Source: Eledone cirrhosa | Taxonomy: Eukaryota | Length of the DNA: 64,000 nt | Direction of reading: 5' to 3' | Assembly: GCA_964016885.1 (NCBI GenBank) | Contig: OZ024742.1 | Location: forward strand, 211,792,001-211,856,000 | Shown here: in pieces, positions 1,929 through 63,215 of the stretch | How the letters are laid out: every line of letters starts with the position of its first letter | How positions within the stretch are numbered: position 1 is the first letter of the stretch | Position numbers and translations under genes: made by a program | Notes under the pieces: model-generated | The model's database searches: none | Told to the model about the DNA's origin: nothing | What the model saw: only the letters and a program-made list of their open reading frames with translations

Positions 1929-5005
<3,077 letters not shown>

Positions 5006-5159
5006 GGTGGCTGCCAACTCGTTTTCGAGTACGGCCACTACTTTATATCCATGTAGGAGAACCCTTACCGATGCGCTGAACGAGTGTGACTTTTTAGTCC
5101 AGCCAGAGACTTGAAAACTCTGGTACAAACACTACACTTGTCACAATTATTGACACATA
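5006..5159 (-). mobile_element. 5'-truncated copy of non-autonomous RTE-derived element (3' end)
   Basis: Near-identical to 10855-11008 and 17597-17749. Encodes a C-terminal C2H2 remnant [17 protein letters not shown]. Confidence 0.75.
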
Positions 5160-7356
<2,197 letters not shown>

Positions 7357-7399
7357 AAATAACAACAAAGAGCGCTTAGAACATAGGTATATCTTTAAT

Positions 7400-7445
7400 T
7401 GCTAACAGTGTTTCGTCCACACTAGAAGTGGGACTCTTCAGAGCA
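7400..7445 (-). ncRNA. Minimal type I hammerhead ribozyme
   Basis: Reverse complement of 7846-7891. Confidence 0.75.
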
Positions 7446-7845
7446 TAAAGAGTAAATACATAGTATACAAGCATTGACAAAGCCAAAACAGAAGAATATA
7501 TGTGGGGATACCATAAGTTGGGAGGAGTTTAAAGAGTAAAGTAAAAGGAGTAAAATAAAAGGAGAAGAGTAAAATAAAAATATAGGATTAAGAAAAGAAT
7601 AAGATTAAGAATAAAAATATTTTTTATTTTTTTATTTTTATTTTTTATTTTTTATTTTTATTATTATTCTTATTTTTATTTTTATTCTTAATCTTTTTAA
7701 TTCTTAATCCTATATTTTTATTTTACTCTTCTTTTATTTTACTCCTTTTACTTTACTCTTTAAACTCCTCCCAACTTATGGTATCCCCACATATATTCTT
7801 CTGTTTGGCTTTGTCAATGCTTGTATACTATGTATTTACTCTTTA

Positions 7846-7891
7846 TGCTCTGAAGAGTCCCACTTCTAGTGTGGACGAAACACTGTTAGCA
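7846..7891 (+). ncRNA. Minimal type I hammerhead ribozyme
   Basis: tgct-CTGAAGA-gtcc(cacttctagtgt)ggac-GAAA-cactg-TT-agca. Stem I tgct/agca, stem II gtcc/ggac, predicted GUU cleavage site. Confidence 0.78.
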
Positions 7892-8021
7892 ATTAAAAAT
7901 ATACCTATGTTCTAAGCGCTCTTTGTTGTTATTTATATTACGGCTCTGTCCTCTGACATTGAGCTAACCATATACTGCCTATTTGATAAGTGGAGTGTTA
8001 CACACTCCCAATTCTCTCCCT

Positions 8022-8060
8022 TATATATATATATATACATATATATATATACATATATAC

Positions 8061-8111
<51 letters not shown>

Positions 8112-8402
8112 CATATATATATACATATATATATATATACATATAATATATATACATATATACATATACACATATACATATACACATATACATATATACA
8201 TATACACATATACATATATATATATATACATATATATATATACATATACACATATATATATATACATATATATATATACACATATATATATACACATATA
8301 TATATAGCACATATATATACATATATATATATACATATATATATATATACATATATATATACACATATATATATACACATATATATACATATATATATAT
8401 AC

Positions 8403-8451
<49 letters not shown>

Positions 8452-8774
8452 TATATATACACATATATATATACACACATATATATATACACATATATAT
8501 ATACACATATATATATACACATATATATATATACATATATATATATACATATATATATATACACATATATATATACACATATATATATACACATATATAT
8601 ATACACATATATATATATACACATATATATATATACATATATATATACATATATATATATACATATATATATATACATATATATATATATACATATATAT
8701 ATATACATATATATATACATATATATATACATATATATATATATACATATATATATATACATATATATATATAC

Positions 8775-8805
<31 letters not shown>

Positions 8806-8852
8806 CATATATATACATATATATACATATATACATATATATACATATATAC

Positions 8853-8925
<73 letters not shown>

Positions 8926-9272
8926 CATATATACATATATATATATACATATATACATATACATATATACATATATACATATATATATATACATATATAT
9001 ATATACATATATATATATACATATATATATATATACATATATATATACATATATATATACATATATATATACATATATATATATATTCATATATATATAT
9101 TCATATATATATATACATATATATATATACATATATATATACATATATATATATACATATATATATACATATATATATACATATATATATATACATATAT
9201 ATATATACATATATATATATACATATATATATATACATATATATATATACATATATACATATATATATATAC

Positions 9273-9335
<63 letters not shown>

Positions 9336-9742
9336 CATATATATATACATACATATATATATATACATACATATATATATACATACATATATATATACAT
9401 ACATATATATATATACATACATACATATATACATACATATATATATATATACATACATACATATATATATACATACATATATATATACATACATATATAT
9501 ATACATACATATATATATATATATATATACATACATACATATATATATATACACATATATATATATACATACATATATATATATATATACATACATATAT
9601 ATATATAAATACATATATATATATATATACATATCTATATACATATATATATATATACATATATATACATATCTATATACATACATATATATATATATAT
9701 ACATACATATCTATATACATACATATCTATATATACATACAT
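8022..9742. repeat. ~1.7-kb (TA)n/(TACA)n array
   Basis: Seen directly. Confidence 0.99.
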
Positions 9743-9745
9743 ATC

Positions 9746-15237: not shown

Positions 15238-16229
15238 CTAGCATTAAAGCCCGGCGTTGCTCGGAGTCATTAAGTTACCAAAGTTAGGTTGCACCACCCA
15301 TTTTATGGCAGCACTTTTTTGTCTGCCAGGCACTGGGTGAATGAATTGCAGACCTGGAAGCAGGAGCTGCGCCAGCAGTGACAATTGTAGTTTCGCCTAT
15401 GGATATTATCTCTGGGCAAAAAAGTGTTGAAATTTATTGTTTCACAGTACTTGCGCAACACGCGCGTAGACGATGCCAGCCGAACAACAGAGCTGCGATG
15501 GAGTTGTTCTGCATGGTTGTCTGTGTGTTTTCTAAATTTAAGACAGTAGGGAGGGTTGTGATATGAGGGAGAGTTAGCTGTTGTTTCTAGCAGGTTTAGT
15601 GACCTCATAGATGATATGTGTTTTCTAAATTTAAGACAGTAGGGAGTGGTGTGATATGGGGGAGAGTTAGCTGCTGTTTCTAGCAGGTTTAGTGACCTCA
15701 TAGAAGATATGTTTTCTAAATTTAAGACAGTGGGGAGGGGTGTGGTATGGGGGAGAGTTAACTGCTGTTTCTAGCAGGTTTAGTGACCTCATAGAGGATA
15801 TTATTGTTTATCATTATCTATAAAAGGCAGATTGTTGTTGTTGAAGTGAGTGTGTGTTTGTATGCGTTTGGAAAAGAGGTTTTAAAAAAGATTTATCGCT
15901 TGTTGTTGAATAAATGTATCTGTTGCTTTTGAAACGGACAGTATCACCATCAAGCTTGGAAAGACAAAATAGCAGGAAGTATGAAGTTGTATAGATTTTG
16001 AATGGTAGTGGAAAGAGTTTAGCAGTTTAAATGACAGAGAAAAATGGTAAAATATTGAGTTTTATCTACTTTTTGCGTAATTGTGGGCGAAATTGAAAAA
16101 ATGAGATGTGCCAAGACGCAATCGAAACTATTTCGAATACTAAATTGTAAATTTCAATTGAAGAAATTCTATATCGCAGATTTCTATAATAAAGGAGCAT
16201 GACCACACACTGAGCTTTATAGATTATGA
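15238..16229 (-). mobile_element. Non-autonomous Helitron with internal ~93-bp x3 tandem repeat (15524-15800)
   Basis: Minus strand ends in an imperfect hairpin ccgagcaacgccggg..CTAG|T. A|TC-type 5' end lies next to the TA array; its exact position is uncertain. Confidence 0.65.
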
Positions 16230-17596
<1,367 letters not shown>

Positions 17597-18339: not shown

Positions 18340-18539
18340 NNNNNNNNNNNNNNNNNNNNNNNNNNNNNNNNNNNNNNNNNNNNNNNNNNNNNNNNNNNNN
18401 NNNNNNNNNNNNNNNNNNNNNNNNNNNNNNNNNNNNNNNNNNNNNNNNNNNNNNNNNNNNNNNNNNNNNNNNNNNNNNNNNNNNNNNNNNNNNNNNNNNN
18501 NNNNNNNNNNNNNNNNNNNNNNNNNNNNNNNNNNNNNNN
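18340..18539. other. Assembly gap (200 N)
   Basis: N run. Confidence 1.
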
Positions 18540-24755: not shown

Positions 24756-25628
24756 GGGAAAGTGTCCGTTTTAGCCGACAGTCAGTCAACTGAATTTAGG
24801 GATATACCACACAATACGCTGAACATGATACACAGTAACAAAATTATAGGAAACATATAACTATATAAACATTTTTAGAACGCTGATAGAGGATGTTAGT
24901 TATATGGGTTGTTATGAATGTTATTATTTGTTTGTGTATTGTATCACAGAGAGTAACCGAAACAGTCCAATGGAATGTTGTGGCAAATATCATCATAAGG
25001 CATTACGACGTTTTTTGATATATGATTTATTTACAAAGATGAGGAGAAGTTGAGTTAGCTGTGATGACATGTCATAAGAAATGAAATAAAACAAATTGAG
25101 ATGCTGTAAAAGAATACGCAGACCTATGGCTAAAGTTAGAAGCCACAGCTGCGGTAATTGTTCGATAGCTACATTTTGGAAAGTTTGTTGAGCAAAATCA
25201 AGAGATGTTTACCTTCTGGTGACGAGATTCAAAGAGAGAGATTTTTGAAGCGAAGCGGAAATTTTTCCCTTTCGGGGGAAGTTGAAATACATTTTCCTAC
25301 GCCGATAGCGATTGGCTGAACTGAGCCAAACAACGCACAGAGAATGTATTCAAGAGCCATCAGAATGTAGGTCACTACACATTTTACCTGCAGATCTTTG
25401 TTCTCCATACTGACATTTCCGCCCCCACCCCTCTCTCCTCGGCAGGATTTGAACTCAGAAGGCAAAGGGCTGTAACTTAACTACACACTCATTCCATCTA
25501 GTCACATAAACTCGATGTTTATACATCCATACTGGCATTAGATAAAAGCAAACGGTACCTACAATTTCAGTCCTATTTTTTTATCATCTCCAACAATCTA
25601 TGTTAAGCAACGACAAAGGGCAAAGATC

Positions 25629-27612
25629 TATAGCGAGGATACTGGGTTGTATGAATGTAACAAGGAGGCATGGTTTGTGTGTATAATATTTAATTAACAA
25701 TCATGGATATATATAGAACAGTATAGTTGACATGTCAAAGTAATAGATGATAGAATTTAGTAAAGTTAGTAGTTACCGTTTTGATTGCCAGGCAAACGCG
25801 AGACGCCTGGCGAGGCCAGGCGCCGGAAGGGCAAATGAGAGGGAGAGAGCCGAGAGCTATTCGTTTTATAGGGCTCTGCCGGAAGTTACAGAAAGGGTTC
25901 TACTTCCCGTCTAGATGTTAATCTATTGGGGCTGTGAGTCACAACAAGGGAGGCCACTGCTACATAACCTCCCGCCAGAATTTTAGAATATAAAAATCGA
26001 ATGAAATATGTAGCAAGTTGGCGAGAATGTTGTAACAGGCATGAAAATTACGACAAAAGAATGTTTGCAAAAATCAATGATAGATGTCAAGGTAGCCAAC
26101 CGCTCTTGGCCAGAGAACGACTGGACATCTATCTATCCATCACCCAAAGATACAATGTAATAAAGTAAGAGAAGAGCTCAAAGTTCAAATGTACAAAATA
26201 TAGTTCACAGGTGTGCAATCACATGACAGCAGGAAAGAAAGTGTGTTCCAGAGAATGAATGCAGGTGGTTTCTGTTCTGTGGTATATCGTGAAATTTCCA
26301 ACCTCCGAATGGATTTTCTCACAGGAAGAGTGCTGCAAAAATAAATTCTCTGGCTTGTTCTGCTGGTTTTGGTTGTTGGTAAAGTTGTGTTGCTGTGGAT
26401 GTTGTCTCGCGGAGTGAGCGTATTCGGTGTTTAAATTCACAGTAAAAAAATTTTTTTAAGAAAAAATGAGTTGCGCAAAGTGCTAGAAATAACAGCCGAA
26501 GTTGATGGTCGATGTTGAGAATGCGTTGACCTGGAAGGGTCAAGAGGCCAGCGACCAAAGAAATAAGCATTCTGAATAAATGCGCAGTTTTCAACGGCAA
26601 ATTTACGTGGTAAATTTTTAAACCGGCAAATAGGAGAATATAGCTTAAGGCTGAAGAATCCTTGGCGAGAAACGTTATCTCTGGCGTGCGGCTATCTCTG
26701 TGAGTCGAGATATCTCTGTGAGTCGAGAATTTGTGCTGCCCACACGTGCCAACACAAGGTTAAGCTAGGTTGAAAAAATTATATTTCTAACGCGCGAGAA
26801 AATGATAGTACAAGTGTGAAAGTGACAATGATGAAAAAGAAAGGCTTCACTTAGCATAATTATTGGTGTGAACTTTGGAAAAAAAAACTTGAACGATGAA
26901 GAAAACGATGAAAAAAAAGGCAATGGTTCATCGAAAATAAATGTTCCTGTTGAAATGTTTTTTAAAGAATATCAAATTTCTTTTTTTTTTTTTTTTTTTG
27001 AAAGTGTTCGTTGTAAGAAACGAGAAACATATATATATATCGTGAAATGCGACAGTTAGTTGATGCGAGAGAGAAAAAGTCTGTCTGTGCGAAAATTTCA
27101 CATGTGCGTGGTGTGTTCGTTTCTTTTACTGAGTATTTTCATAGTTTGTCAATAAATTTGCTGTGTATTCGTAATGTTACTCACACAACTCCAGAATCTG
27201 CTATTTTTTCTTTTTTCGGGGTGACCACTTATAGCGATGAACGGCTGCGTGTTCGTATCACGTCAGGGTTACCAATATAGCGAGGATATTGGGTTGTATG
27301 AATGTAACAAGGAGGCATGGTTTGTGTGTATAATATTTAATTAACAATCATGGATATATATAGAACAGTATAGTTGACATGTCAAAGTAATAGATGATAG
27401 AATTTAGCAAAGTTAGTAGTTACCGTTTTGATTGCCAGGCAAACGCGAGACGCCTGGCGAAGGCCAGGCGCCGGAAGGGCAAATGAGAGGGAGAGAGCCG
27501 AGAGCTATTCGTTTTATAGGGCTCTGCCGGAAGTTACAGAAAGGGTTCTACTTCCCGTCTAGATGTTAATCTATTGGGGTTGTGAGTCACAACAAGGGAG
27601 GCCACTGCTACA
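25629..27612 (-). mobile_element. Non-autonomous LTR retrotransposon (Gypsy-type); LTRs 25629-25964 and 27276-27612
   Basis: ~336-bp direct repeats with about 4 differences; 4-bp TSD gatc; tRNA-Trp PBS at 27257-27274; purine-rich tract ggcgggagg next to the 3' LTR; no recognisable pol ORF. Confidence 0.92.
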
Positions 27613-28342
27613 GATCTGTAGAAAATTACAACCCTCCAACGTGGAATAAACTAACGATAGTCAATAAAAAGAAAGAGAAAATTCAGACGTCAAGATATTT
27701 GAACACTTTTCTCGGAATATTTTCCATGTCTACGATATCTTGCACAGTTGAAATGTAAACGGATTAGAAAGAAAGAAAAAAACCAAAAAAAACCAACGCG
27801 TATTGCTTCCCACACGGATATACATATATATATGTGTGTGTGTATATGACATACCAACACACATATGTACGTGGGCATACATGTATGTATATATATATGT
27901 ATGTGGTATGCTAATATTATTCCATTAATTGTGGCAAGCATACCCATTTACAGACCTTTTTATCCCATTGCAATGAGAGCCGTACAGAGCTGTTATACTA
28001 GTATTAAACAGTATAGTTCGCCATTCGAAATCCAACACGCGAAGTCCAGAAAGATGATGAATCTGATGACATTGATGAAGGAAATTTGCTTGCATCAGAT
28101 ACCAATCCTCTTGAGTTAATGAATGTTTATCTTAAACATTTGCCACGCTGCTTCATCAGTTCGAACACATTCCTAAATCCACCAGACTCTATCCATATCC
28201 ACATTGATGATTTTACGCTTGGATTATCTGATTACTCAATAGTCAAACATTCGTGGCATTAATTCACAGTTTAATCCATGATGCTGGGAAGCAGTATGTG
28301 CTGTTATGATGGAACACATCCTAGAATGGAAATATAACCTCA

Positions 28343-28527
28343 AATAATTGTTTCTACTTTTGGCACAAGGCCAGCAATTATCCAGTTCATTACTGGTACT
28401 TTATTTCATCAACCCCGTGAGGATGAAAGGCAAAGTTAACCTCGACGGGATTTGAACTCAGACCGTAAAGGGACGTAACTATGCTGGAAAGCATGGCGTC
28501 CGACCCTCTACCGATACTGCCAATTCA
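28343..28527 (-). mobile_element. tRNA-derived SINE
   Basis: Same family as 20845-21220. Confidence 0.9.
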
Positions 28528-29048
28528 ACAATAAATGCTATTAACCATCGATAGGAACCTCACAAATTTAACGCACCGAAACATACGAGAAGAGCGAGAG
28601 AAAGAAATAACAACAAATGGAAACATAAATCCAAACCAAACCAAACCGACCACCAATTTACTGCCAAATGATTTGAATCAGATTAGACAGAGAGAAAGAA
28701 AAAAGAGAATATATTTATTTGACGTTGTGCTGCCAAATGATGCCGAAAGCCACTGACCTGCATCTTCGGTCAAGAAGGCCATTGGAGCGTCACTGACAGA
28801 GGCTGATACAGCAGCAAGCTTGGTAGCCGTTATAGGCAGCACCAACATTTGTTCCTACCATTAACAAGAGGAAGGCAACGACAGCAATAGTGACATTAAG
28901 AACAACACATATGTGTATACATCAACATCTTACCAGCAATCACTACCACTACCATTAACAAGAGGAAGCCAACTCCAGCATCTGTGACAATAACAATGCA
29001 TATGTTTTCAGGATTGAATGACTCACCTTCAGCCATAAGGTTTTAGAA

Positions 29049-29430
29049 TGTTAGTATCAGTGTATATATATTATTAAGAATGACAATAAATGCAGGTGAG
29101 TGTTGTGACATGGTTTTACTTCACAGAAGTCAAATAAATTAATAGAAATAATGTTTACCACATGTTGATGGTCAGTTGGTCACAACTCCCAGACTGGAGC
29201 GTGTAGAGAAGAGCAGAAATCTTCTCTTGGTAAGGTTCAAGTGGTCCTTTCGGCTGCCGGCGCAGGAAGTGAGTTAATGCCCTGATGTTCTTAAATATAT
29301 AGTCCCCAGGGGGACGCAATTCCATTTAGTACATTGGGAGTCGCGACCGTCACAAAGGGACGCAACTCCTATACGTGCTGAGTTACAGCCGTAAGGGGCC
29401 GCTACAAGGTCCTATGAGAAACTGCTAACA
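29049..29430. mobile_element. Possible solo LTR
   Basis: tgttag...ctaaca termini and a TATA-like motif; no TSD found. Confidence 0.35.
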
Positions 29431-29623
29431 TGCTCGCATGTGTGCGTGCTGAACTCTGGGTCTTTCAGCTGGGAACAACCCCCCCCCCTGGTTTTTTTTT
29501 TTTACATTCATCCATTCATTCATTCATTCATTCATTTGCTAACATTCTACCTTCTTGTGTGTCCCCCTCTATGCACCCTTTTCTTTTTTCTCTTGTCTTC
29601 TGATGCCTCTATAAATAATGTAG

Positions 29624-35660: not shown

Positions 35661-37720
35661 CTAGTGACTTTTGAGGCAAGCCAGCACACTCGCAGCATCC
35701 AGGATGTGGGAGAGAGAGCAAAGAGTCACTAACAGTGACGTCCCAGACAAGGGACCTGCCTCTCGACCATGGGCACAGAGTAAGGCTGTCAGGTCTTTTG
35801 CCATCACTTCTGGACAACCCAGATGGTTACAAGACTGGGGGGGGGGTTTCGCCCGGGCCAAAGCTCTCTTGAGGATGAGGTTTAGCTCCGTGTGACGTGC
35901 GAAGCGGCCGGCATTCAGGCGGCAAGAAAGACCGCATCGGCCCCTTAAACCCATGCAGGCGTCAGCTCCCACTCTGAGGGCGATAGAGACACGAAGTTCG
36001 TCCAGGCTGAGTAGACCACCGACGTTGGCCACGGGTAGGGCATCAACCCAGTCGCCTGAGTATTTGGCGCTGGCAAATAGTAAGCGGCATCTTGCAAACT
36101 GATCTGACTGGACGAAGAGGGAGTCGAAGGTGGTCTTCGAACTTATGCTGTCCCAAGTTCTCTGACTTCGACTGTCCTCCACCTTCTCAGGAAGAGACAA
36201 GTTCAACTCACTCCATTGCTGGAGAGTTTAGGCGGGACAGTCAGACATCCCGTCTAATTGGATATAATATACTGGCTGGCACATCATCAAACAAGAAAGA
36301 ACATACATCAAGATTATGTTACGTGAACATTTTAATTAGAGCAAATTATAATACAGTCAATACATCAGTGCTCCTAGGTTGGGTAATTGTCCATTATCAT
36401 ATTATGCCGCGACCGCATGGTGTGATGTCGCTGTTTCGTCGCTGCGTGGAATCACGTCTGTTCACTTCTAGGTACCACCGTCTAAGAGTGTTGTTTCAGC
36501 TACTGACGTCAGAACGTGACACCAGAACGTGACGTCAGAACGTCAGAACTAAGGGCAGTTAATCGACTGCCTCCAAAGTCGACGCTAGGTGGCGTGATCT
36601 TCTACCAGAGCTTCACCCAACTCCCTGTTGGAACTAGTTTATGTTGGAGAGGAGAGGATGCTGCTCTCCGGGGTGGAGGAAAGGAAGCAGGAGAGAGAGA
36701 GGGACGAAAACTTACGAAGACCAAGACCCCCAAATCGCTTGGGCAACGCAGCCTGGTCGCGGGACTCTGAAGAGAGTCTAAAATTGACCAGGCACTCGAG
36801 TCTTTCGAAGATTAGGTCGTCGAAGCGTTGGAGGCAGGACGGTAATCTGTGAGAGGGGCTGACCCTGAGCAGATACAGAAGCTTAGGAATAGATAGGTAG
36901 TTCCTGAGTATGAAGAAACCTTGATGGGGTTCGATAACCTCAATATTCTTCAGCAGCTGCTCAAGGCCAACCATCTTCGATTGGAAGATTGACTCGAAGG
37001 CAAGGTCTGTGATTGGGGCTCCTAAGGAGCACCAAGTTGACGGGGGAGGGACCGCGATGGAAGGGAAGGACTCTGCAAACAGGTCGATCAGCTGTTGGTG
37101 TTGAGAAGCCGGGTGGTTGAGAATCCAGAGCTCACATTTGGAGCTATTGACCTGGAGACCCCGTTGGCCAAGCTCCTCAACCATCTTGTTGGCAGGCGTC
37201 GTCGAGGTACCAGACATTGACGTGCAACTCAACCCCCATCTTGGTGACGTCATCAATGCCCACTGCAAGCAGAGCGGGCCCGAGTGCGTCACGCTGTTGG
37301 ACTCCTGAGGCAGAGGTGATGATTTGGTTACCGAAAGAGAGGTAGGAGGGCTCCCGATAAGCCTGCCAAGCAAAGTGGTAGAGTTGTGGGACCGTCTCTC
37401 TTACTGAGCCGAGGACGACGTCGCGGCTGACGGAGTTAAAGGCGTTCCTGAGGTCAAGTTTGAGGATGACCTTGGGGGACGAGGAGGGCAAGTTGGTAAA
37501 TGCTCTGGTAGCGTGGACAGCAGCCTCACATCCCAACTTGGTACCCACCCCCAGCTGGATGGGTAGAATTCCTGCGCCAGTGAGTCGGAGACCAACAGCA
37601 AACACGCCTTTGCAGTGAGGTGGCGAAGGGTGCAGCCAACCGCAATGGGGCGCAGGTCTCCGTTGAGCCTGGTTAGACCAAATAGCTTCGCACCGAAGAA
37701 CAGTGGGCAGATGAACGGGA
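35661..37720 (-). mobile_element. CRE-type element of a second subfamily, 5'-truncated, with internal insertion
   Basis: LRPIAVG, QLGVGTKLGCE, KLDLRNAFNS, GVQQRDALGP, WYLDD, PKLLYLLR, RHTELN, RPDSL..WDVT. Confidence 0.88.
36227..36606. mobile_element. 380-bp insertion (solo-LTR-like) in the CRE copy
   Basis: 4-bp TSD agag. Removing it restores the ELGEALQQWSELNL reading. Confidence 0.65.
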
Positions 37721-38282
37721 GAACGTATGTATACAAAGGAAAAGAAAACGAAAAAAAAAAAGAAAGAGAAAAAAATACACTAGCACGTAATGCACACATC
37801 TAAGACCACATAGGCTGGATAATGTAGTTAGGTAACAGAACACGGTAGCAAAAGAGTCACTAATTGTGACGTCCCATTCACACAAATACACATAGTTTCA
37901 CACAAACACATACATACATTCACATAAACACACACTCACACATATACATTTACACAAACACACACATACAGTCATGATAGCGTTCGGTGTATTGGAAATG
38001 GGAGGGTAGAAGTACAACTTTTTATTTATTTATTAACAACACAGTTTAACTCTTTTTTTTTTTTAAAACTCATTTGTATAAAAATTTAATATAATGATTA
38101 CAGAACGAAAACACTAACAAATATAATATATACAAAGGAAAGGGAAAGGAAAAAAGAGAAAGAGAAAAAATACACAAGCACGTAATACCCACATCATAGA
38201 CCACACAGAACAATATGGAGGCGAAACGAGACGCTACCAGAGCAAAAGATAGCAATGTAGCGAGAAACACTGGGAAACATCT

Positions 38283-50417: not shown

Positions 50418-50420
<3 letters not shown>

Positions 50421-51900
50421 GGGGATGCTCTGGAGAGGAGCAATTATAGGGGTATAAAACTGATGGATCAGGTTATGAAAGTGGCAGAAAGGATATTAGC
50501 ACAACTAATTAGAGAAAGGGTCAAACTAGATGAGATGCAGTTTGATTTTCTGCCTGGGAAAAGTACAACAGATGCCCTCTTCTTGGTGAGACAATTACAA
50601 GAAAGGTTCTTAGAGAAGAATAAGCCACTATACTTAGCCTTTGTTGTCCTAGAGAAGGCCTTTAATAGGGTACCCCGATCTGTCATCTGGTGGTCCCTAA
50701 GCAAACTAGGTGTTGAGGAATGGCTCGTGAGGACAGTGCAAACTTTGTACAGAGGTGCTATCAGTAAAGACAGGGTAGGAATGGAGTTTAGTGAGGAATT
50801 CCAGATACAAGTAGGAGTACATCAAGGTTCGGTCCTCAGCCCGCTCTTGTTCATTATAGTCCTCCAAGCCATAATAGAGGAGTTTAAGACTGGCTGTCCA
50901 TGGGAACTTCTCTATGCTAACGATCTGGTTCTTATAGCAGAATCAATAGAGGAGCTAGAGAATAAATTCTGGCTATGGAAACAGCAGTTGGAAGCAAGAG
51001 GACTGAGAGTGAACCTAGCTAAGACAAAAGTGTTGATGAGAAGAAAAGAGGACAAAACTCTGATTCTGTCAGGGAAATGGCCATGTTCGATATGCAGAAA
51101 AGGAACTGGCATAAATTCTATAAAATGCACACAATGCAGATCCTGGGTACACAAGAGATGTAGTGGGATAGCAGGCAAACTAACAGGTAGGGAGAAATAT
51201 GTATGCAGTAGATGTACAGGGAAATTAGGCAGTAGAAGTCGCATTGATAGACACATTTTTCAAATGCAGGCGGGTGCTATAGAAGTGGTGGATAGACCGG
51301 TACCTAGGAGATCAGATTAGCATGGGAGGGGAGTGTTCCGAGGCCATAGTATCTTGAATAAGGACGGGTTGGAAGAAGTTTAGGGAGCTGCTTCCTCTGC
51401 TGACAAAGAAGGGTTTCTCCCTGCGTACGAAAGGCCGGTTATATGATGGCTGTGTGAGGAGAACGATGCTGCATGGTAATGAGACATGGGCAGCAACTGC
51501 AGAGGATATGCGACGGCTGGAGAGAAATGAGGCAAGCATGCTCCGTTGGATGTGCAGTGTAAATGTGCGTGAACGACCTAGCATGGATGTGTTGAGAGAG
51601 AAACTGTGCCTGAGAAGGATAGAATGTAGTGTACGGGAGAGGAGACTGAGGTGGTATGGACATGTGATGCGCATGGAGGATGACCGATGGGTGAAAAAGT
51701 ACCAGGAAATGCCAGTTGAAGGAAGACGTGGTAGAGGTAGACCACAAAAAACATGGGCAGAGGTGGTGAGAAAAGGCCTCAGATCGCTGAAGCTCACAAT
51801 GGAGATGACGAAGGACCGTGACGAGTGGAGAGATGCTGAATAGGACCCATTCCATCCTTGCAAGCAGGGAAAAGCAGACGTAAAATGATGATGATGATGA
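50418..51900 (+). mobile_element. 5'-truncated RTE-clade LINE (RT, PHD-like zinc finger, C-terminus, (TGA)n tail) between (TA)n tracts
   Basis: QFDFLPGKSTTDA, LEKAFNRVPR, GVHQGSVLSPLLF, LLYANDL (YADD altered), CSIC..CTQCRSWVHKRC..CSRC, RRLRWYGHV, RGRGRPQKTW. Confidence 0.92.
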
Positions 51901-62074: not shown

Positions 62075-62094
62075 CTATTATTATTATAATTATT

Positions 62095-63215
62095 GGGCGG
62101 TGGATTGGCAGTATCGGTAGAGGGTCGGACGCCATGCTTTGCAGCATAGAGTTACGGCTCTTTATGATCTGAGCTCAAATCCCGCCGAGGTTAACTTTGC
62201 CTTTCATCCTTATGGGGTTGATAAAATAAAGTACCAGTAATGTACTGGGTAATTTCTGGCCTTGTGCCTAAAGTAGAAACAATTATTATTATAATTATTG
62301 GGCGGTGGATTGGCAGTATCGGTAGAGGGTCGGACGCCATGCTTTGCAGCATAGAGTTACGGCTCTTTATGATCTGAGCTCAAATCCCGCCGAGGTTAAC
62401 TTTGTCTTTCATCCTTATGGGGTCGATAAAATAAAGTACCAGTAATACACTGGGTAATTGCTGGCCTTGTGCCAAAAGTAGAAACAATTATTATTATTAT
62501 TATTATTGGCAGTATCAGTAAAGTGTTGGACACCATCTTTCACGACATAGAGTTATGACCCATTACATTCTGAGTTCAAATCCTGCCGTGGTTAGCTTTG
62601 CTTTTCATCCTTGTGGGGTTGATAAAATAAAGTACCAGCAATGCACTGAGGTGATTTAACTGACTTGCCCCATCGCCCCTCAAATTGTTGGCCTTGTTCT
62701 TAAATCAGAAACCATTATTATTATTATTATTGGCTTGTCGGTAGAGTGTTGAACAAAATACTTTGTGGTATTTAATTACGATGTTCTATGGTCTAAGTTT
62801 AAATCCCTCCAGTACCAGTTAAATACTGGGATTGATATAATCGACTTCCCCTACCCCCAAATTGCTGGCCTTGTACCAGTATCAGAAAGACATTATTGGA
62901 TTTACATGGGTAGTGGACTGACAGTATAGGTATAGGAATGGACAAAATGTGAGTTCAAATCCCACCGAGGTGAACTTGTGTCAATGTTAGAAAGAATTAT
63001 TATTGGATTATCAGTTATTAGAGTGTCTGACAAATGCTTAGCAGTTCTTTTCATTCTGAGTTCAAATCATGTCGAGGTCAACTTTGCCTTTCATCCTTCC
63101 AGGATTGATAAAATAAAGTACCAGTAAAGTACTAGGGGACAATTTAATTGACTCCCCATCCCACTCAAAAAAATTGCTGGCGCTGTGCTTAACATAGAAA
63201 CTATTATTATTATTA
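62095..63215 (+). mobile_element. Head-to-tail cluster of ~6 SINEs separated by (ATT)n
   Basis: Repeated SINE core; the first two copies are almost identical and later ones are more diverged. Confidence 0.9.

Follow-up and report, generated by a model that had tools for sequence, protein, structure and literature searches.

Likely reverse-transcription errors at methylated bases of primer tRNA-Trp preserved in an LTR element family of Eledone cirrhosa

Copying of a primer tRNA past m1A58, with the product joined elsewhere, has been described for HIV-1 in defective proviruses that arise when second-strand transfer is delayed (Hardy et al. 2025, PMC12657518). The tRNA inserts reported there are 7-54 nt long and have position 58 changed in 5 of 44 cases, which the authors treat as a question of tRNA mutation; the products described are somatic, adjoin deletions and are dead ends. 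That read-through can leave tRNA inserts with a changed position 58 is thus already known. A similar layout is also known once, from cqgypsy_1 of Culex quinquefasciatus, whose primer site holds CCA-bearing tRNA sequence with a duplicated 26-nt stretch of the LTR end flanking it (PMC3286476). That case comprises two whole tRNAs in one assembled copy and was read as a SINE-like insertion; we saw no mention of a modification signature. In lentiviruses the complementarity to the primer exceeds 18 nt by ~4 nt, and minor plus-strand stops occur past 58 and at 37 (PMC13191261, PMC8599865). The Helenus and Ajax TRIMs hold promoter-type tRNA or 5S pieces inside the LTR (PMC10886601), and Drosophila Gypsy has a second tRNA site at its 3' side (PMC1635307). 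m1A58 is a general feature of eukaryotic tRNA; mixed errors at 58 together with stops at 37 and 26 are the reverse transcriptase (RT) signature of m1A58, m1G37 and m2,2G26 (PMC5066629).

Here we describe an LTR element from Eledone cirrhosa, located in a window of 64,000 nt (contig OZ024742.1, positions 211,792,001 to 211,856,000), in which a primer tRNA appears to have been copied past position 58 and joined elsewhere, as in HIV-1. Unlike the HIV-1 products, the copy is inherited and amplified, its primer site is duplicated, and it could be compared with the gene set of the host. The over-extension is 14 nt long, has a fixed mismatch at 58 and belongs to a tandem site, in contrast to the ~4 extra nt of lentiviruses. 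The unit is primer-complementary and lies just inside the 5' LTR, which distinguishes it from the LTR pieces of Helenus and Ajax and from the 3' site of Drosophila Gypsy. The literature that we covered, in which subscription journals and Repbase reports are thinly represented, yielded no inherited, amplified and recurrent cases, nor a genome-wide tRNA modification profile drawn from such junctions.

The element and its two primer units

The element occupies 1,984 bp on the minus strand (25629-27612) between two copies of a 4-bp target-site duplication, GATC (25625-25628 and 27613-27616). Its 5' LTR (27276-27612, 337 nt, ends TG...TA) is 98.8% identical to the 3' LTR (25629-25964, 336 nt). A polypurine-tract-like sequence that is kept across family copies adjoins the 3' LTR (25965-25978, minus strand). 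The internal region (25979-27215, minus strand) is without recognisable coding domains, and its sole frame of at least 120 aa (26319-26759) had no Pfam match. Having two LTRs with a target-site duplication, a primer site with a polypurine tract, and no gag or pol, the element belongs to the non-autonomous LTR retrotransposons. Complete family copies are ~1.9-2.3 kb long, most of them with 4-bp duplications. A tRNA-Trp primer site and a 4-bp duplication are also found in the CsRn1 lineage of Ty3/Gypsy (PMC3630058); the CHCC gag and GPY integrase motifs described for that lineage are both absent from the window element. The element exceeds the limit of <1,000 bp for TRIMs (PMC10886601), and its tRNA piece lies outside the LTR, at the 3' end as well, unlike the tRNA-like promoter of Helenus.

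Adjacent to the 5' LTR, 27243-27274 (minus strand) is the complement of tRNA-Trp positions 76-45 and consists of an 18-nt primer site followed by the 14-nt over-extension. Of its 32 bases, 29 equal those of the host tRNA-Trp gene L061 followed by CCA, the mismatches being at positions 72 (27270), 67 (27265) and 58. At the last of these the plus strand has T (27256) where the host has A, a difference that is fixed in the family and is likely a misincorporation opposite m1A58. Further inward follow a 5-nt junction linker (27238-27242, minus strand), whose bases are likely untemplated or misaligned, and then a segment that comparison with single-site relatives identifies as the repeated last 8 nt of the LTR (27230-27237) together with the AG spacer that the older single-site form has (27228-27237 in all, minus strand). 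The old tRNA-Trp primer site comes last (27216-27227, minus strand, 12 nt with one mismatch). It is intact in the single-site relatives and decays in younger copies, where it is substituted, has an expanded C-run or is lost. As CCA is absent from the tRNA-Trp gene copies seen, the template was mature tRNA. An earlier note, made from the sequence alone, had described both tRNA-Trp units at this place and a match of ~32 nt to the tRNA 3' end including CCA, with T at the A58 position; both observations hold. The two further mismatches that it reported are present too, but as later changes of the lineage, absent from most of the 22 copies that have the same junction and an intact old site. ARAGORN found no tRNA in the window, and Rfam gave no tRNA match in 25,000-29,500.

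The layout is a family trait. An exact pattern gave 553 matches in the genome against 0 for a reversed-pattern control, so that chance does not account for it, and both the layout and T58 are present in 30/30 best-matching copies. Among the first 100 pattern matches listed, 95 belong to the family by hand count: 73 have both primer-site mismatches, 13 have neither, eight agree with the tRNA only at 72 and one only at 67. Hence the LTR-proximal site agrees with the tRNA at 72 in 21/95 and at 67 in 14/95 listed matches, while the inner site decays. A search for bases other than T at 58 in the family returned seven copies, all with C, and thus reversion to A58 in 0/7 variants. As read from these sequences, the 18-nt site of the family either returns to the tRNA sequence at times or, in older copies, had never departed from it, and 58 is unrestored. 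According to a review of Ty3, it is usually the element RNA that passes on the primer site, and strong-stop DNA bearing tRNA sequence mostly leads nowhere (PMC5371799); by analogy, such inheritance would fit the unchanged position 58. The T58 scar is one ancestral event inherited by ~500 copies, not an event of the window copy.

Several other features of the window and the family were seen. A short site close to the LTR end, on its inner side (27284-27289 and the corresponding positions of family copies), is hypervariable, and the 5' and 3' LTR of one element are often unlike there. Elsewhere, 50418-51317 (plus strand) holds a frame of 300 aa in which a PHD finger comes after an RT domain, and 37180-37779 (minus strand) a weak RT fragment. 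Very long AT-rich microsatellite arrays (1929-9744 and 16229-17596) account for the long stop-free frames; a gap of 200 N lies at 18340-18539. A SINE-like repeat (28342-28527) has many copies in the window, some of them in a 205-bp tandem at 62077-62648. Thirteen family matches at L211 (G000:C14, 21.37-21.46 Mb) are ~4-6 kb apart on one strand, apparently as a tandem array.

Position 58 and the end points of tRNA-Trp copies

Over-long tRNA-Trp copies follow many unrelated LTR ends in the genome, at dozens of junctions. In a first test we used one pattern that ran from the anticodon to the T loop and left 58 free. Its 80 matches comprised 73 gene copies and seven junctions, all of these long junctions ending at 27-30. 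A58 was missing in 5/7 of them compared with 1/73 gene copies (p=5e-6). The second test was based on the 39 matches of a separate search that lay outside the family and the genes, some of its loci being common to the first. Here 58 was changed in 11/39 (six T, three G and two C in tRNA sense) and correct in the other 28 read-throughs. Under an equal mismatch cap at 58 the count was 5/33 (p=9e-4 against all sites), and with families collapsed it was 3/29 (p=0.03, or 0.004 against A/T sites). Unmethylated primers may supply many of the read-throughs with a correct base. Two small families are polymorphic at 58. In a combined set of 47 junctions 11 are changed, which is not a rate, as the set mixes searches that fix and searches that exclude A58. 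The recurrence of mixed changes in independent junctions supports the premise of the earlier note that read-through at 58 is error-prone. The window copy and dozens of junctions thus likely preserve RT errors at methylated tRNA bases, as far as can be judged from sequence.

T58 might have another origin. Over-extension and jump would be real, and T58 would be a plain substitution fixed in the founder or a base copied from a T58 gene variant. The lineage did later fix two further substitutions within these 32 nt, and T58 occurs in two gene copies (L063, L401). However, among the two-site copies that look most basal and otherwise match the tRNA, nearly all have T58, and 58 is the outlier position in unrelated junctions. 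Each of the two T58 gene copies differs from the window unit at a further base. The host genes as a whole have A58 in 72/73; T58 in them would, by the earlier note, have told against its reading. We consider this origin improbable for the window family, even though L401 could be the template of junctions that combine T58 with A57. Variation between C57 and T57 was tried as a second scar and rejected, since it is a common tRNA-Trp gene variant. Most tRNA-Trp gene copies lie in two clusters (L061-L065; G000:C4, 277.4 and 353.4 Mb), the larger of which holds mostly the A57 variant.

The end points of the copies are also uneven. Position 41 or further is reached by 31 of the 47 junctions, and of these 26 end at 35-41, none at 30-34, five at 27-29 and none below 27; microhomology blurs these end points. 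Three further junctions end at 27, 29 and 30. Position 37 is changed in 2/5 junctions and in 0/3 of the additional ones. We infer that m1G37 and m2,2G26 are the likely causes of the end points at 35-41 and at 27-30. That they stem rather from cleaved 3' tRNA halves or from stem structure seems somewhat unlikely to us. The spread over 35-41, with exactly 38 in only 3/47, would suit such an origin, as would one palindromic junction (L163) that uses the anticodon stem itself; yet eight junctions pass the anticodon, all of them end at 27-30, and in two of them position 37 is miscopied.

A metagenome scan gave 23 matches, namely four genes of other tRNAs, three near-duplicates and 16 distinct junctions. 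Among the latter, 4/16 lack A58, a count that is no test of position 58, since the search pattern fixed all other positions; three end at 27-28, one at 32, and one is a whole tRNA. Records L335 and L337 have tandem units. Record L353 contains six units of 113-118 nt, each opening with a tRNA-Trp primer-site match, of which only the last is extended.

Origin and fate of the two-unit layout

Relatives that share the LTR end and have just one 12-nt site gave 74 matches. Median divergence between 5' and 3' LTR is 3.2% in the single-site form (n=15 of 20 fetched), 2.4% in older two-site copies (n=7), 2.0% in two-site copies with an intact old site (n=11 of 19) and 0.8% in the youngest two-site copies (n=30); copies without a usable 3' LTR were left out of these sets (5/20, 4/41 and 8/19 for single-site, two-site and intact-old-site copies). 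Single-site relatives differ from all two-site copies (p=7e-5), with no difference from the older two-site copies (p=0.53). Judged from LTR divergence, they are older than the youngest two-site copies. In a tree rooted only at its midpoint, a 100/100 branch sets the two-site copies apart.

In 23 copies an extension precedes an old site that is still intact, 22 with the junction of the window and one (L307) with its own. The L307 unit derives from the A57 isodecoder, has a correct A58, ends at 51 and has a different linker of 5-6 nt; past it come, once more, the last 8 nt of the LTR, the AG and the old site. The two-unit layout therefore arose at least twice. The earlier note had suggested that a new unit was gained on the LTR-proximal side, which the single-site relatives and L307 support. 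A family with A58 and a single invariant primer site, which would have told against that note, is not what was found: single-site relatives exist beside the two-site copies, and none of the seven variants carries A58.

The best explanation, and in our view a probable one, is that a Gypsy RT passed the likely methylated A58 of its primer with a wrong base and that a jump to the LTR end founded the layout. The enzyme would have read through A58, likely inserting the wrong base, and plus-strand strong-stop DNA would have been extended to tRNA position 45. Such an over-long end would have found no partner past the end of the 12-nt old site. It would have landed on the 3' end of minus-strand DNA that held ~8 nt of U5, whereupon the U5 end, the spacer and the old site would have been copied again. 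Priming likely passed to the new site, and the scar would have been inherited unchanged because normal cycles likely stop at or before 58. An element's 5' and 3' LTR diverge most 9-11 nt from the LTR end (12/53, 8/51 and 10/51 columns compared with 3.4% elsewhere), as expected with a template end there, which supports landing on the U5 end. A normal 18-nt stop mis-joined to the window-element family was also found (L226). When the landing sites of junctions were mapped onto the 900 nt upstream, few of 49 rows had a clear LTR match (L053, L103, L164). The core of the earlier claim, that the element copied its own modified primer and pushed the old site inward, thus stands, the scar being ancestral.

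Recombination at the DNA level with a tRNA gene, or insertion of such a gene or of a tRNA-derived SINE at the LTR, is highly improbable. About 73 gene copies do share homology with the primer site, and a SINE-like insertion was proposed for the mosquito cqgypsy_1 (PMC3286476). The junctions, however, always start at the CCA adjoining the LTR end, they include neither gene flank nor 5' half, and their errors at 58 are foreign to genes.

The lentiviral primer over-extension sequence and the extended Ty1 contact are precedents for extra pairing with the primer. Whatever its origin, the extension may have been kept by selection as such extra pairing; this is compatible with primer read-through and jump, and we hold it to be a possibility, at somewhat less than even chances. 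The predicted duplex with tRNA-Trp amounts to -56 kcal/mol for the 32 nt, compared with -28 for the 18 nt with their mismatches and -25 in the single-site form, although these energies ignore tRNA folding and modification. Two-site matches outnumber single-site ones by ~500 to 74, but copy number may stem from one lucky master copy. A coding Gypsy family also has a fixed extension of 29-32 nt (36 copies).

This coding family (L213) has a tRNA-Trp site, CHCC and GPY motifs and the order PR-RT-RH-IN, and its best match among solved structures is Ty3 Pol. It fits the description of CsRn1 given in PMC3630058 and is a candidate helper for the window element. The polypurine tracts of the two families are similar, and at L125 an LTR of the L213 family is joined to the interior of the window-element family; no other sequence similarity between L213 and the window element was found. 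In all 36 copies considered, the L213 extension has A58, but most of these copies had been picked out with a pattern that itself contained A58.

Some family copies have three units (L090, L109, L176, L185, L386, L390, L392) and one has five (L394). The arrays repeat an identical T58 unit and thus arose by slippage or duplication rather than fresh tRNA capture, the slippage likely occurring between the two U5-end repeats. At L386, L388 and L393 the 3' LTR ends after the tRNA unit, so that the unit has moved into the LTR; other families have remnants of old primer sites in U5. The earlier comparison with polarised spacer acquisition therefore applies in part: the unit was added on the leader side, whereas further array units are duplications and not new sequences. 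A single polarity does not hold, as units also end up inside the LTR, with opposite polarity. The analogy is loose, and we found neither a dedicated machinery nor changing spacer content.

Odd products were also seen. At L083 (~1122) two LTRs lie ~55 nt apart, with a primer unit joined straight to the polypurine tract and C at 58 in both units. In an extra LTR-proximal unit at L090 (1454-1500, minus strand), three A residues of the element strand are changed to G, a pattern that RNA editing might produce. Inverted products occur at L103 and L163, where the LTR and a tRNA copy to 27-28 are followed, in inverted orientation, by an LTR or by a second tRNA copy.

Proposed inherited record of read-through and primer-site turnover

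In a wider sense, animal genomes may hold an inherited record of primer-tRNA methylation, in the form of an error-and-stop profile at m1A58, m1G37 and m2,2G26 left by germ-line retrotransposon RT at the over-extended junctions of Gypsy elements primed by tRNA-Trp, and the same accident may routinely renew decayed primer sites and lengthen LTRs. We regard this general proposition as evenly balanced. If it is true, a known accident of reverse transcription is not always a dead end but can give rise to a family that thrives and whose primer site is replaced, which would provide a concrete route for primer-site turnover. Germ-line tRNA modification and RT bypass in vivo would then be readable from the assemblies of animals without tRNA sequencing.
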